In this document: in pieces, positions 12,817 through 37,358 of the stretch
How positions within the stretch are numbered: the first letter of the stretch is position 1
How the letters are laid out: each line of letters opens with the position of its first letter
NCBI GenBank assembly: GCA_004356455.1
Contig: SMWZ01000029.1
Span: 12,897-76,896 of the forward strand
Direction: 5' to 3'
From: Deltaproteobacteria bacterium
GTDB taxonomy: Bacteria > Myxococcota_A > UBA9160 > SZUA-336
DNA length: 64,000 nt
Translations under genes and position numbers: made by a program
The notes under the pieces: model-generated
Told to the model about the DNA's origin: nothing
The model's database searches: none
Seen by the model: only the letters and a program-made list of their open reading frames with translations

Positions 12817-14179
12817 CTAATCTATGTAGCCTTGCGCACGCAGCTGCTCCCGCGTTCTATCGTCGATGCTGAACTCATTCTCGGATTCGGCTCCGGGCCT
12901 GTACGAGGCGCCCTCCAGAATGAAGGCCAGAAGGCTCGCCTCCAGCTCGCGTACCGCTCGCTCCGCTTTACGCGCGTCGTATAGATTGAGCTTTTCCTCG
13001 GGATCCTCTGACAGGTCGTAGAGCTCGCTCCTCACGCGGCCGTCCTTGAAGTAGCTCCGGATAAGCTTGTGTTGGCCTACCTGGATGGACTTGCTGAAGA
13101 AATCGTAGCCCGCGTCGAACTCCACAGGATGCAGCTCAGCAAAGAGGGGTCGCCCATGTCCGGCAGGACTTTTCGAGGGACGCCCTTTCTGCCTGATGTA
13201 GGGCAGCAGACTGGTCCCCTGGAGCCCAGCGGGCGGCTCGAGCCCGACCAAGGTCGAGTACGGTCGGGAAGATGTCCAGCAGAGAGGCCGGCACCTCGAC
13301 AGTCTGGTCGGCCTCGATCACTCGCGGGTAGCGGAGGACGAGCGGAACCATCAGCGACTCTCGATAGAGCGTGCTCTTGTGACCGAAAGCGCCGTGCTCC
13401 CCTAGCTCCTCACCATGATCGGAGACGAGGATCACGAGCGTGGACTCCGCCCAGCCCGCGTCTTGCAGCGCGTCAAAGACCCTCTTCAGCTGGGCGTCCA
13501 CGAAATGGATCGCACTGTCATAGAACGCGAGTCGATAGCCAGGGTCTCCGGGACGCACGTCGTTCATGAACCTCCTGCTCTTGGACTTTCCTTGCGGGTC
13601 GAAGTAGTGCGCGAACAGGAAGAAGGAGGGAGGGACGAGCCCCCGGCTGACGTGGAAAGCGGTGCCACTCCAGCCAGAGCTGGGCGCGGTCCGCCTGCAA
13701 GTCCGCGCGCGTCGAGAAACGGCGATACAGATCGAAGCCCCACTCCCCCGACAAGAAGGGGTGTGCCACGAAGCCGGCCGTCGCGTAGCCGGCCCCCTTC
13801 AAGATCTCCGCCAGCGTCACCTCGGACTCGTCGAGTCTTACACTCCCCAGACGTCCTCCATGGTCGAGCTTGTGATAGGACGGATAGAGCGATGTGAACA
13901 GGGACATGTGTGCCGGCAGCGTCCAGGACGAAGGGCTGATCGCGTTGCGGAAGAGCGCCCCACGGGCCGCAAGCGCGTCGATGTGGGGCGACGTCTCGCG
14001 GCAAGGGTGGAGGCCAGGTTGGGTTGCTTCGCGTAGGCGAGTGTCAGCGCCGCGCCGAAGCGCACCTGCTCATCGTCGCTGGAGAGATACCTGAAGTACT
14101 GGCGCAGCGTCGCGCCGGAGGCGACGGAGGGCAGACTCAGTCCGAGGGAGACGACCAGTCCGATCAGAACGCGAGTCAT
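12817..14179 (-). pseudogene. sulfatase-like (alkaline-phosphatase superfamily) gene disrupted by at least 3 frameshifts
   Basis: Four consecutive minus-strand ORF fragments cover, in order, the signal peptide, the N-terminal core (…SPSSWTLPAHMSLFTSLYPSYH), the middle (…FFLFAHYFDP) and the C-terminal sulfatase regions in three different frames. The catalytic C/S-x-P-x-R motif is replaced by I-S-P-S-S. Confidence 0.6.
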
Positions 14180-32308: not shown

Positions 32309-33091
32309 CTAAATTCCACCCTCGTACTCACGACCGCGCACGCACCGGTAGGGGCGCCGTCCCGACGTCCCCCCGCCCTCGATATAGGCGCAAGCCGCAC
32401 TCGCAAAGTGGGCCGAGATGGCTCGCCGAAAAGACCGCGAACGGTTTCGTCCGGACCCGTGTAGCAGGAGTGGATGGAAGAACACCGAATCTCCCGGCTG
32501 CATCTCCAGATGGAGCCGGTCCGGGTGCCTGCCCACGCCGGCCGCACCAAAATAGGCGAGGTTGAGGTGCTCCCAGTCAGGATTCTCGTGTTTGAGAAGC
32601 TCCCCACGATGCGAGCCCGGGACGACGACGAGGCAGCCGTTCTCCTTCGTGATCCGTTGCAGCGCGGTCCAAATCGCTACGATTTTGTTGGCCGGACGGA
32701 AGGGAAAGTAGAGCAGGTCCTGGTGCAGGGGGTGGCGGCCGTCCACGTTGGGCGGCTTGTTGATGAGCATGGTGTGGATCGATTTAATATCGGGACCCAC
32801 GAAGTCCTCGACCCAGTCCAACAGCCTGTCGTGGAGCGCGTAGCTGTAGAGGACGGGATCGTTCTCGAAGTCCTGAAGCTTGGCGATGGCCTCGGCTGGC
32901 GATTTCGGATTGATGACACCCTTCGCGACCATCACGTCGCGCATCACGAGCATATGCTCGGCGGGCTCAACCTCACCGTTGACGATGGCCTCAAAGCGCT
33001 CGAGCCAGACCGCCAGCTCGTCCTGCCCGAACAGGCGGGGCACCACGAGATACCCCTGCTTCTGGTAGAATTGCGCCTGCTCCGGAGTCAC
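32309..33091 (-). CDS. phytanoyl-CoA dioxygenase (PhyH) family Fe(II)/2-oxoglutarate oxygenase
   Basis: 260 aa. N-terminal FYQKQGYLVV and HxD…H facial triad. Confidence 0.8.
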   Translation of the reverse strand: MTPEQAQFYQKQGYLVVPRLFGQDELAVWLERFEAIVNGEVEPAEHMLVMRDVMVAKGVINPKSPAEAIAKLQDFENDPVLYSYALHDRLLDWVEDFVGPDIKSIHTMLINKPPNVDGRHPLHQDLLYFPFRPANKIVAIWTALQRITKENGCLVVVPGSHRGELLKHENPDWEHLNLAYFGAAGVGRHPDRLHLEMQPGDSVFFHPLLLHGSGRNRSRSFRRAISAHFASAACAYIEGGGTSGRRPYRCVRGREYEGGI

Positions 33092-33128
33092 GTCTCTATT
33101 CTAGCGTGGCGGGGAGACAATCCTAACC

Positions 33129-34475
<1,347 letters not shown>

Positions 34476-34481
34476 ACAAAA

Positions 34482-34510
34482 GGCCAGCGCCGACCGCGTC
34501 GGCGACGGCC
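34482..34510. terminator. GC-rich hairpin between convergent genes (GGCCAGCGCCGAC-CGC-GTCGGCGACGGCC); likely a bidirectional terminator
   Basis: Near-perfect inverted repeat followed by a T-containing tract. Lies between the stop codons of the GH1 gene and the repeat-protein gene. Confidence 0.45.
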
Positions 34511-34546: not shown

Positions 34547-35296
34547 CTACCTGCGACCGCCGCGCTGTCCTCGGCTGCCTCGATGTCCCTGGCGGTCGCT
34601 GCGCTGGTCCGCGCGGTCGTTGCGCCGGTCCACGCGGTCGCTGCGCCGGTCCACGCGGTCGTTGCGCCGGTCCACGCGGTCGCTGCGCCGGTCCGCGCGT
34701 CGATCCGTTACGTCGCTGCGCCGGTCCTGGCGTCGCTCGGCACGCTCGCCGTGCCGGTCCTGACGTCGCTCGGCCCGCTCGCTGCGCCGCTCCTGGCGTT
34801 GCTCGGCCCGCTGCCTGCGCCGCTCGGCCCGCTCACCATCTTGACCCTGGCGCTCGCCCGCGTGCTCGCCCCGTCGGTCCAGCTGGTTATCGATGCGCTC
34901 GCCCTTGCGATCCAGGCGCCGGTCGATGCGGTCGCCCTTGTTGTCCAGGCGCTGGTCGATGCGATCGCCTCTGCGATCCAGACGCTCTTGGATACGGTCG
35001 CCTTTCCGGTCCAGGCGTTCGGCCAGACCGTGCCTACCCGCTTCCTCAGCTCGCTCCGACAGGCGATCGAAGTGCTCATCCATGCGCTCGCCCTTACGAT
35101 CCAGGCGCTCGTTCACGCGGTCGCCCCTGCGATCCAGGCGTTCATCGATGCGATCACCCTGGCGATCGAGACGCTGCTCGATGCGGTCGCCCTTGCGGTC
35201 GAGCCGATCTTCAAGCTCCGCCTCGGCCAGGGCGGGGCCCGTGGCCAAACCCAAACCCGTAGCCATCACAACCGAATACAGACCTAGCCTGCTCAT
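34547..35296 (-). CDS. secreted, extremely charged tandem-repeat protein (11-mer LDRKGDRIxxR repeats, then ERAERRQDR and 7-mer DRVDRRN repeats)
   Basis: Signal peptide MSRLGLYSVVMATGLGLATGPALA. About 16 copies of an 11-residue repeat encoded by 33-bp DNA repeats. The C-terminus has 21-bp repeats. The plus-strand ORFs over this region are repeat artefacts. Confidence 0.65.
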   Translation of the reverse strand: MSRLGLYSVVMATGLGLATGPALAEAELEDRLDRKGDRIEQRLDRQGDRIDERLDRRGDRVNERLDRKGERMDEHFDRLSERAEEAGRHGLAERLDRKGDRIQERLDRRGDRIDQRLDNKGDRIDRRLDRKGERIDNQLDRRGEHAGERQGQDGERAERRRQRAEQRQERRSERAERRQDRHGERAERRQDRRSDVTDRRADRRSDRVDRRNDRVDRRSDRVDRRNDRADQRSDRQGHRGSRGQRGGRR

Positions 35297-35521
35297 TTCT
35301 GAAATCTCCTCAGAGACGGTGCCTATGGCCCCCCCCGTTCACCCGTCAAACCGGCGAGCGTCCCAACGGTTTCGTTGGCGGGCCGAGCTGCCTAGGAGCT
35401 GCCGGTTCGGCCAGGCGCTGCCAGCGGCCGTCCGTTCGCGCGTTATCGGCCACCCGCCCGCGCCGCTGAAGCGCCCTCTCTTCTTACGCGTAACTTTCTC
35501 TGGAGAGCTGATCGCCCAGCC

Positions 35522-35854: not shown

Positions 35855-35889
35855 GCGGCAATCTTATCCGAGCGCATCTCAGTCTAAAC

Positions 35890-37038
35890 TTGACTAATTT
35901 GTCCAGTTTGGTAGACAGCCAACCCATGGGTCAGATCAGCGAAGCCGACGTGCTCGAGGCGCTGCGCCCGATCGAGGATCCTGACTTCCATCGCTCGATC
36001 GTCGACCTGGGCTTCGTCAAGAACGTCCAGCTCGACGGAGGGCGCGTGTCCTTCGCGATCGAGCTCACGACGCCGGCCTGTCCCGTGAAGGAGCAGTTCA
36101 AGCAAGCCGCCGAGCGGGCGGTGTCCGCCCTCGCGGGCGTGAACGAGGTCGAGGTCACCATGACCGCGAACACGCGCGGCTCGAGGCCCAGCTCGGGCAA
36201 CGGCGGCAAGCCAGAGATCCTGAAGAGCGTCCGCAACGTGATCGCAGTCGCCAGCGGTAAAGGGGGCGTAGGCAAGTCGACCGTGGCCGTCAACCTCGCC
36301 CTCGCGCTCCAGCAGCTCGGCGCCCGGGTGGGGGTTCTCGACTGCGATATCTATGGCCCCTCGATTCCCCTCATGCTCCACGTCTCGGGTGAGCCGCGCG
36401 TGACGCCCGAGCGAAAGCTCGTGCCCAAGGAAAGCTACGGGCTCGAGCTGATGTCGATCGGGTTCCTGGCTGGCGAGGACGCGCCCGTGATCTGGCGCGG
36501 ACCGATGGTGCACGGCATTATTCGTCAGTTCCTCTCCGACGTGCTGTGGGGCGAGCTCGACTATCTGGTGCTCGACCTGCCTCCGGGCACGGGCGACGCC
36601 GCGCTTACACTCACACAGACCGCTCCCCTCTCGGGCGCGATCATTGTGACCACCCCCCAAGAGGTGGCGCTGATCGACGCGCGCAAGGGGCTCAAGATGT
36701 TCCAGCGCGTCAACGTGCCGGTGCTCGGGATCGTCGAGAACATGAGCTACTTCATCTGCTCCGGCTGCCAGCAGCGCCACACGCTCTTCGGCGAGGGCGG
36801 AGTCGAGCGTACCGCTGAGGATCTGGGCGTACCGCTGCTGGTGAAGATTCCGCTGCAGCCCGACGTCGTCGCTGCGGGGGACAAGGGCAATCCCACCGTG
36901 CTCTCGGCACCCGGCTCGCCCGCGGGCGAGGCCTTTATCGAGCTGGCCGGCACCGTGGCACGCAAGCTCTCGCTCCTGACCGCGGAGGCCCCGCCACTCC
37001 TCGACGGCAACATCGAGTGGGTGAACACGCCGGGATGA
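35890..37038 (+). CDS. apbC: Mrp/NBP35-family iron-sulfur cluster carrier ATPase (ApbC) with an N-terminal DUF59/FeS-assembly domain
   Basis: Walker A motif GKGGVGKST. The CxxC motif (CSGCQQ) near the C-terminus. N-terminal MIP18-like domain. Confidence 0.85.
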   Translation: MTNLSSLVDSQPMGQISEADVLEALRPIEDPDFHRSIVDLGFVKNVQLDGGRVSFAIELTTPACPVKEQFKQAAERAVSALAGVNEVEVTMTANTRGSRPSSGNGGKPEILKSVRNVIAVASGKGGVGKSTVAVNLALALQQLGARVGVLDCDIYGPSIPLMLHVSGEPRVTPERKLVPKESYGLELMSIGFLAGEDAPVIWRGPMVHGIIRQFLSDVLWGELDYLVLDLPPGTGDAALTLTQTAPLSGAIIVTTPQEVALIDARKGLKMFQRVNVPVLGIVENMSYFICSGCQQRHTLFGEGGVERTAEDLGVPLLVKIPLQPDVVAAGDKGNPTVLSAPGSPAGEAFIELAGTVARKLSLLTAEAPPLLDGNIEWVNTPG

Positions 37039-37358
37039 AGATCGTCCGCTGGGACGCCGCCGCACACCGATTCTCCCCCGAGAAGATGCAGAAGGTCGGA
37101 CTCTTCTCCTCGGAGCGATTCTTCCTCGACCTCTACTGCCTCGAGCCCGGACAGTCACAGAAGCCGCACGCGCACGATGGCTCCGACAAGGTCTACCTGG
37201 TGGTGGAGGGACGCGGTCGCTTCCGGGTGGCCGGGGAGGAGCAGAGCCTCGGCGCGGGCGAGGGCGTGATGGCCGGCGCGGGGGACGTTCACGGCATCGC
37301 GAACGACTCCGAGGAGCGGCTGGTGGTGCTTACGCTCATGGCTCCACCTCCGCAGTAA
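37035..37358 (+). CDS. cupin-domain protein
   Basis: Cupin motifs (HAHDGSDKVYLVVEG…GDVHGIAN). ATGA overlap with the apbC stop. Confidence 0.65.
   Translation: MKIVRWDAAAHRFSPEKMQKVGLFSSERFFLDLYCLEPGQSQKPHAHDGSDKVYLVVEGRGRFRVAGEEQSLGAGEGVMAGAGDVHGIANDSEERLVVLTLMAPPPQ

Follow-up and report, generated by a model that had tools for sequence, protein, structure and literature searches.

A 64,000-nt stretch of contig SMWZ01000029.1 (the window, spanning positions 12,897 to 76,896; GenBank assembly GCA_004356455.1), from a Deltaproteobacteria bacterium, carries on its minus strand, at positions 34547-35296, a gene for a 249-aa precursor composed largely of charged 11-residue repeats. We find that its product belongs to a clearly delimited new family whose general type, the exported helical-hairpin stress protein, is familiar, and which is distinguished by an unusual charge design, by a regulatory link that had gone unseen and, in this lineage, by a polymorphic C-terminal tail. 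An initial annotation had described a secreted, highly charged 11-mer repeat protein, a description that our sequence analyses support, and had seen no homolog class in it. The protein is instead a member of a large defined family with a fixed architecture and a conserved promoter of the extracytoplasmic function (ECF) type. No curated family lays claim to it, with Pfam, NCBIfam and the PDB yielding sub-threshold matches only.

The first homolog search (phmmer) returned 155 matches with a best E-value of 7e-35, an exhaustive HMMER search gave 715 clusters at 50% identity (E <= 1e-3), and a scan of one genome per species placed the family in at least 411 species genomes. Carriers are mostly marine-sediment Gammaproteobacteria (e.g. 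Woeseiaceae and Acidiferrobacterales), with others among the Zetaproteobacteria, Nitrospirota, Nitrospinota, Deltaproteobacteria, Myxococcota and Planctomycetota. Across 80 loci, chosen as the best matches to a canonical query, the proteins follow a common plan in which a signal peptide leads into an N arm of 11-mers, and a Gly-containing linker, fixed at 19 residues, connects this arm to a C arm that is likewise built of 11-mers. A signal peptide organised as K/R n-region, h-region and AxA motif is present in 77 of the 79 members for which a start was chosen (L015 and L042 score poorly, and no start was found for L052), and a Shine-Dalgarno-like site likewise precedes the chosen start in 77 of 79. 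The 572 repeat units define the consensus L-D-(R/N)-(K/R)-G-D-R-I-(D/E/N)-x-R, in which L is conserved at 95%, D2 at 97%, G5 at 100%, D6 at 80%, R7 at 98% and R11 at 87%, position 8 being I or V. The spacing between repeat cores across the linker is fixed at 30 residues, and 69 of 76 proteins have Gly as the linker residue. Arms range from 22 to 88 residues and nevertheless stay matched within a protein, the N arm minus the C arm being 0 or -11 in 67 of 76 (r = 0.61). They are also differentiated. In 75 of 76 proteins the more basic arm is the C arm, and at repeat position 10 the N arm has E/D where the C arm has R. The median net charge of members is +11. Some members contain two or three hairpin units (L012, L020, L031 and L058). 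Furthermore, unrelated-looking proteins of 387-1444 aa (P0151, P0153, P0192 and P0234) bear similar h-D-x-x-G-D-x-h-x-x-x 11-mers, such as VDRAGDFIEER and IDQVGDKVDET, and from these sequences the hendecad motif may be a more general building block.

The window protein follows this plan closely. Residues 1-24 (35225-35296) read by eye as a Sec-type signal peptide, MSRLGLYSVVMATGLGLATGPALA, cut after residue 24 and followed by EAELED, with R3 in the n-region, a hydrophobic core and an A-L-A cleavage motif. The clean signal peptide noted at the outset is therefore evident in the sequence, and the protein is predicted to be Sec-exported. Sec export is intolerant of positive charge just past the cleavage site, a constraint that the acidic early mature region (EAELED) fits. 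The N arm (residues 25-86, 35039-35224) comprises a partial unit, four LDRxGDRIxxR 11-mers at residues 32-75 and the degenerate unit FDRLSERAEEA, and has a net charge of about -2; residues 76-94 are made up of this degenerate unit plus an 8-residue insert (FDRLSERAEEAGRHGLAER). A hairpin turn, A-G-R, at residues 86-88 (35033-35041) holds the conserved linker Gly87 and is a helix break in both AlphaFold2 models described below. The C arm (residues 89-149, 34850-35032; net charge about +4) opens with HGLAER and continues through four LDRxGDRIxxR 11-mers and the degenerate LDRRGEHAGER, so that residues 95-149 hold four canonical units and one degenerate. Measured as for the rest of the family, the arms are 55 (N) and 66 (C) residues long, with net charges of -2 and +4, and the repeat cores flanking the linker, at residues 65 and 95, are 30 apart. 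Eight units in all meet the 11-mer consensus. The initial estimate of about 16 LDRKGDRIxxR copies is thereby revised to eight canonical and two degenerate units, arranged as 4+1, the 19-residue linker and again 4+1. The 11-residue periodicity itself is far above chance, with a lag-11 identity of 0.52 in the core versus a shuffle maximum of 0.26. The proposed D/E/R/K content above 60% applies to the mature protein (60.4%) but not to the precursor (55%); Gly makes up 9.6%, and the only Pro sits in the signal peptide.

Structure prediction gives this layout a simple form. The AlphaFold2 model of the mature core consists of helices H2-61 and H65-124 with a turn of three residues between them at the linker Gly, and has a predicted local distance difference test score (pLDDT) of 92.3 and a predicted TM-score of 0.67. 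The full-length model has a helix at residues 20-85, the same break at residues 86-88, and a second helix that runs on through the tail. The core (residues 25-149) is thus predicted to fold back on itself as two antiparallel helices, giving a hairpin of 2 x 60 residues and approximately 9 nm in length. The matched lengths and differentiated composition of the arms are independent of the predictor and support such a hairpin. When placed on an 11/3 helix, L1, G5 and I8 lie within +/-33 degrees of one another, a narrow seam that suits close packing of two helices and not a lipid-binding face. A broad amphipathic face, suggested by the proteins to which the initial annotation likened this periodicity, is consequently not what the repeat encodes, for L1 and I8 are its only hydrophobic positions and G5 is invariant, and the resulting seam would pair the two arms. 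A Foldseek search of the PDB with the core and full-length models recovered only generic long hairpins, all with E > 1.

The surface of the predicted hairpin is organised as stripes of like charge. Since 11 residues correspond to three helical turns, each repeat position runs straight along the helix, which places D9, D2 and D6 in an Asp stripe at 65-131 degrees and R3, R7, R11 and K/R4 in an Arg stripe at 196-295 degrees of each helix. Like-charge pairs at i+3/i+4 are enriched in the window protein (z = +6.2 in the core and +5.4 in the tail), opposite-charge pairs at this spacing are depleted (z = -3.6 and -3.2, respectively), and the like-charge enrichment was seen in all 79 family proteins tested (median z +6.45, minimum +4.6). 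An E4K4 control gave the reverse, +8.6 for attractive and -8.6 for like-charge pairs. By antiparallel symmetry we infer that the two Asp stripes would share one side of the hairpin and the two Arg stripes the opposite side. At these surface positions D is strictly preferred to E and R to K, a pattern of sequence conservation that suggests a function for the stripes.

A second family-wide feature is the promoter. The motif GTCAAC(C/G)-N15-CGTT, with its exact spacer, was found upstream of the gene in 69 of 75 loci (shuffle maximum 7), 34-92 nt before the ATG with a median of 47, and 76 of 80 loci have the relaxed pattern AAC[C/G]-N15-[C/G]GT[T/C] in the 100 nt before the ATG, compared with a background of about 0.01 per 70 nt. 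The AAC/CGT combination is the signature of ECF sigma promoters. Lineage variants at the corresponding position include AACC-N15-GGTT in L031 and L033 and AACC-N15-CGTC in L034 and L073, four loci that had looked like exceptions to the stricter motif and of which L031 is from the Myxococcota and the other three are from Deltaproteobacteria. Moreover, in roughly 29 of the 76 loci with enough downstream sequence (about 38%) the repeat gene heads a sigma operon on the same strand, with a median gap of 100 nt, and is followed in order by an ECF sigma gene and the genes for a DUF3619-like protein, a small secreted protein and a DUF3106 protein (e.g. L050 8515-10210 and L054 8453-10070, as well as L022, L024, L058, L039 and others). 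The sigma factor matches NCBIfam NF006550 at 212 bits, the DUF3619-like product, of about 118 aa, crosses the membrane once and matches DUF3619 weakly, just below the Pfam cut-off, the small secreted protein bears the motif PSLEFLEFLGEWET.DG.W, and the DUF3106 match has an E-value of 1e-25. Of 28 checked intervals that separate the repeat gene from the sigma gene, 27 are free of a second motif; L017 has the two genes in the opposite order, each preceded by a motif of its own. The simplest reading of these arrangements is an autoregulated ECF operon with the repeat gene as its first gene and as a universal member of the regulon.

Two further genes preceded by the motif are candidate regulon members on this sequence criterion, namely one at L017 4041-4559 on the minus strand (23.8 bits), which encodes a 172-aa secreted protein, and one at L077 9269-9619, also on the minus strand (21.1 bits), which encodes a 116-aa Gly-zipper lipoprotein; a secreted protein and a lipoprotein of this kind fit an envelope regulon. 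Operons of this general form are known from the autoregulated ECF sigma/anti-sigma systems such as sigE-cseA of Streptomyces, which likewise combine an AAC/CGT-type promoter and a sigma gene with a single-pass membrane protein and secreted proteins, but the partners here are the uncharacterised DUF3619 and DUF3106. Literature searches on DUF3619, DUF3106 and the promoter motif found nothing, and no assignment of the sigma factor to an ECF group was obtained from them. A different arrangement was seen in the Woeseiaceae (15 loci), where a membrane protein of approximately 470-490 aa follows the repeat gene instead of the sigma operon (e.g. L014 8464-9924 and L016 8619-10025) and the ECF-type promoter is kept.

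In the window, a candidate ECF-type promoter of the form AACC-N15-GGTT lies at 35349-35371 on the minus strand, 52 nt upstream of the ATG, with the -35 AACC at 35371-35368 and the -10 GGTT at 35352-35349. It is the variant found in L031 and L033. The pattern AACC-N15-SGTY has four matches in the 64 kb on both strands, two of which are this one palindromic site. The canonical GTCAACC/CGTT form was not found near the gene with a strict position-weight matrix, but a loss of the promoter from the window is not borne out, as the matrix, made from exact GTCAAC/CGTT sites, was too strict and the relaxed pattern recovers the window site together with the variants in L031, L033, L034 and L073. Judged from this site, the window gene is probably still in the ECF regulon. 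Scans for sigma-54 and sigma-70 promoters found nothing upstream of the repeat gene. A perfect palindrome, CCAACGAAACCGTTGG, at 35363-35378 overlaps the -35 part of the candidate promoter and could be an operator, or else a by-product of the self-complementarity of the motif's AAC/GTT.

These features also bear on which strand is coding, a question that the composition of the DNA makes acute. The window is 66% G+C, and long open reading frames (ORFs) occur in all frames around the repeat gene. All public gene calls at the locus are on the plus strand and follow the antisense ORF 34583-35287, with products of 234 or 245 aa (including L081 3568-4272 and the loci L093-L099), and this ORF, which is codon-aligned with ours, has the higher third-position G+C content (0.85 versus 0.78 for the sense ORF). 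Could the plus-strand ORF therefore be the real gene, or could neither strand be coding? Codon-position G+C is unable to tell the two ORFs apart, and we consequently settled the frame from the homologous family. In 80 of 80 homologous loci (46-78% G+C) the sense frame is open, which is true of no other frame, and stops break up the codon-aligned antisense frame in 37 of the 80, from which it follows that the minus-strand frame is correct. The antisense product is furthermore a low-complexity A/V/P sequence, and the signal peptide, a Shine-Dalgarno site, the promoter motif and a terminator-like hairpin all fit the minus strand. An antisense or non-coding origin is accordingly unlikely in the extreme, and the minus-strand ORF 34547-35296 (from the ORF list; stop codon at 34547-34549) is the real gene, as initially chosen, with public annotation on the wrong strand. 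The Shine-Dalgarno site, GAGGAG (35306-35311, minus strand), was read from the sequence 9 nt 5' of the ATG, and the terminator-like hairpin and T-run (34474-34495, minus strand), a pattern match from a consensus scan, stand about 50 nt past the stop. Exact look-ups in a clustered protein collection found neither the sense nor the antisense product; as public callers picked the antisense ORF, the sense protein is missing from protein databases for this lineage. Elsewhere in this DNA, ORFs of 373-424 aa run antisense to or overlap true genes, as at 35884-37158 on the minus strand, which overlaps Mrp/ApbC (35890-37038), and at 32474-33595 on the plus strand, which overlaps a glycoside hydrolase family 1 (GH1) beta-glucosidase (33129-34475). 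Long spurious ORFs of this kind are typical of 66% G+C, and ORF length alone is therefore no proof of coding here.

What sets the window copy apart from the rest of the family is its tail. The core has a net charge of -1, and the surplus of +15 lies entirely in residues 150-249. The first part of the tail (residues 150-196, 34709-34849) consists of xxERAERRQDR 11-mers with a 33-bp period, so that ERAERRQDR, initially described as a 9-mer, is the core of the 11-mer (H/R)(G/S)ERAERRQDR. The second part (residues 197-240, 34577-34708) consists of DRVDRR(N/S) 7-mers, which are real repeats as first reported and which also show a 14-residue super-period (lag-7 identity 0.62, lag-14 identity 0.67). 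The protein ends in a basic Gly/Arg tip, SRGQRGGRR (residues 241-249, 34550-34576), read from the sequence; AlphaFold2 gives pLDDT <50 at residues 243-249, and comparable R/H/G-rich tips occur in other family members. At the DNA level Tandem Repeats Finder located both of the arrays that had been proposed, the 33-bp repeats at 34680-34822, 34890-35017 and 35063-35203, and the 21-bp repeats (period also 42 bp) at 34592-34699, the latter with 5.1 copies and 91% matches. By the family metric the tail measures 89 residues, in comparison to a family median of 4.5 and a next-longest value of 48 among the 77 members analysed, and a homolog search with the tail only, over 5.8 billion proteins, found nothing. 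Alignment of its GERAERRQDRH to the canonical GDRIEQRLDRK shows the seam residues exchanged (I to A and L to Q), and the tail looks, by this alignment, like a de-hydrophobised copy of the canonical repeat. Rather than one array decaying gradually into 9- and 7-residue repeats, as initially described, the protein is a family core onto which a lineage-specific tail has been added.

The charge pattern of the tail also distinguishes it from the ER/K single alpha-helix (SAH) domains, which it resembles in being long, nearly all charged and helical in the AlphaFold2 prediction. The defining property of SAH domains is a surplus of opposite charges at i, i+4, whereas in the tail attractive pairs are depleted (z = -3.2) and like-charge pairs enriched (z = +5.4), and a tail of the ER/K type is ruled out by this charge-pair test.

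We compared strains through assemblies that encode an identical beta-glucosidase protein. The 249-aa allele is present in the window, L081 and L094, and a protein of the same length with other 7-mers in L096, while a 260-aa allele with an extra HGERAERRQDR unit and a shorter, different 7-mer array was recovered in four independent assemblies (L095, L097, L098 and L099). Partial contigs show more 7-mers in L091 and fewer in L092. The core, on the other hand, has four variable sites among 17 strain sequences, a number too small for a comparison of substitutions by codon position to inform. The hypervariable copy number predicted from the DNA repeats hence holds for the tail, with 249 versus 260 aa and varying 7-mers, and not for the core. 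These allele lengths are provisional, as they come from metagenome assemblies that break in the 33-bp and 21-bp repeats; of nine short-read contigs, eight stop within the tail repeats (L082 and L084-L090, at gene positions 554-653), and the L093 scaffold has an N-gap there.

Comparison with known protein families further defines the family. The initial annotation had likened the 11-residue periodicity to that of apolipoproteins, late embryogenesis abundant (LEA) proteins and synucleins. In part this stands, for apolipoprotein is the only profile with a weak match. PF01442 scores 25.7 bits against the full-length window protein and 34.6 bits against the core, and it is the top Pfam match in 40 of 40 members tested (best E 3.5e-11), with all scores below the gathering cut-off of 90 bits; an NCBIfam search with the window protein found nothing, and PDB sequence and profile searches gave ApoA-IV only, at E = 0.05. 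What does not stand is a broad amphipathic lipid-binding face. Apolipoproteins A-I, A-IV and E share with the family a tandem 11-residue helical periodicity and an abundance of D/E/R/K, but have a hydrophobic face of about 5 in 11 positions with Pro punctuation, as opposed to 2 in 11, an invariant Gly and a secreted hairpin here. Group 3 LEA proteins, alpha-synuclein, perilipin and type I antifreeze protein are alike in having 11-residue repeats that give straight stripes and in being very hydrophilic; they differ in that they give no match as sequence families and in the conserved seam, matched arms, signal peptide and ECF sigma regulation found in the present family. Closest in logic are CpxP, Spy and ZraP (LTXXQ family, PF07813), which are exported helical-hairpin stress proteins transcribed under an envelope-stress regulator. 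They are, like the modelled family protein, small, exported, charged all-alpha hairpins, with a promoter under an envelope-stress regulator that is often encoded next to them. They form, however, a curved cradle dimer under a two-component regulator, where the window protein would be a straight hendecad rod under an ECF sigma factor.

What, then, might these proteins do? The reading that we favour, if tentatively and at somewhat less than even chances, is that the family is a set of ECF-switched hairpins that act as periplasmic envelope-stress effectors and bind by electrostatics. The family protein would be the chief product that an uncharacterised envelope-signalling ECF system delivers to the periplasm, and the stress-induced hairpin would use its basic C arm and, where present, the tail to bind client proteins or anionic envelope material. 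This logic would resemble that of CpxP or Spy in the Cpx response, in function and not in ancestry. The window copy stands apart from any sigma gene, retains a candidate promoter of a variant form, and has acquired a 100-residue, +15, strain-variable tail. Several points weigh against this proposal. The expression, export, fold and function described here are predictions from sequence, and the sequence is compatible with a periplasmic or an extracellular location alike. AlphaFold2 is prone to draw periodic charged sequence as long helices, the most conserved residues, D and G, are poor helix formers, and like-charge stripes would destabilise a lone helix, so that the tail may be disordered unless counter-ions are present. 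The likeness to CpxP and Spy is one of logic only, there being no LTXXQ motif and no Pfam (E <= 1) or Foldseek match to them. As for the window copy, its promoter candidate is short, diverged and palindromic and was recognised after the strict matrix had been applied (a posteriori significance of about 0.002-0.01), and tblastn of the operon proteins against the 64-kb window found no ECF sigma, DUF3619 or DUF3106. Finally, the sample of 80 loci is skewed to marine Gammaproteobacteria.

Four other explanations have to be set beside it. CpxP sets the activity of CpxA, and CseA that of sigma-E in Streptomyces, and the hairpin could similarly be a signalling component, a periplasmic ligand or negative-feedback partner of the DUF3619 anti-sigma or of DUF3106, with no protective role of its own. 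That it opens an autoregulated sigma operon, one devoid of internal promoter motifs, in about 29 of 76 loci, that the promoter is universal in the family, and that the partner proteins have periplasmic or secreted parts would all fit. Most genomes, the window included, nonetheless carry the gene unlinked to the sigma operon, and the wide range of repeat number (arms of 22-88 residues and multi-hairpin forms) would be odd for a specific protein-protein interface, which leaves a signalling role rather unlikely. We consider it improbable that the protein is a LEA-like hydrophilin, a periplasmic protectant against desiccation or osmotic stress in which the Asp and Arg stripes would capture ions or retain water, as has been proposed for the plant group 3 LEA 11-mers. 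It would share with them the 11-residue periodicity, the extreme hydrophilicity, 9.6% Gly, the charge stripes and, presumably, induction by a stress sigma factor; yet LEA_4 (PF02987) is not among the Pfam matches of the window protein at E <= 1, LEA proteins are cytosolic and disordered when hydrated while the conserved seam, matched arms and fixed linker here argue for a folded hairpin, and most carriers are permanently submerged marine-sediment bacteria.

About as doubtful is a self-assembling or surface-templating rod that stacks into sheets or filaments as a "charge zipper", or docks on minerals, lipopolysaccharide arrays or glycan strands. The whole family shows like-charge stripes (z >= +4.6 in each of the 79 proteins tested), these stripes are straight and prefer D to E and R to K, the carriers include iron oxidisers and sediment bacteria, and the two-face geometry expected from antiparallel symmetry would provide the surfaces; the median net charge of +11, by contrast, disfavours self-stacking. 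A broader form of this idea, in which the family is a class of ECF-controlled periplasmic charge-stripe rods with all-Asp and all-Arg faces that polymerise or dock in register as a stress-induced electrostatic layer, is only slightly easier to credit and remains unlikely in our view. Least convincing of the functional alternatives is an apolipoprotein-like membrane or lipid binder acting through amphipathic 11/22-mer helices. PF01442 as top Pfam match in all 40 members and ApoA-IV as the sole PDB sequence match would speak for it, but the scores are far under the 90-bit cut-off, only two of 11 positions are hydrophobic (hydrophobic residues make up 17% of the core, at positions 1 and 8 only, and 4% of the tail), and the repeats are without Pro punctuation, such that the match tracks periodicity and composition. 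A lipid-binding role of this type is therefore unlikely, indeed very much so.

In its genomic setting the repeat gene lies between the convergent GH1 beta-glucosidase gene and an MGMT-like gene, the neighbouring proteins being identical to entries from Myxococcales/Deltaproteobacteria metagenome-assembled genomes (e.g. TDJ02206.1 and TDJ02208.1). An Rfam search of the region gave a chance-level match only.

These findings have consequences at several levels. The locus provides a worked example of a high-GC repeat gene at which gene calling based on third-position G+C and short-read assembly both fail, and the family as a whole spans at least 411 species across phyla and has yet been missed by the curated libraries. 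Its design is unusual in that straight like-charge stripes are laid on a hendecad hairpin with strictly conserved D, G and R, and what the stripes bind becomes a biophysical question. The uncharacterised ECF sigma/DUF3619/DUF3106 operon gains both a promoter motif and a universal target, which makes the proposed regulation directly testable in culturable carriers such as Microbulbifer epialgicus DSM 18651 (L054), whose repeat gene lies in the operon. If a class of charge-stripe rods should prove to be real, then the strain-variable basic tail of the window lineage would tune the reach or valency of the rod.

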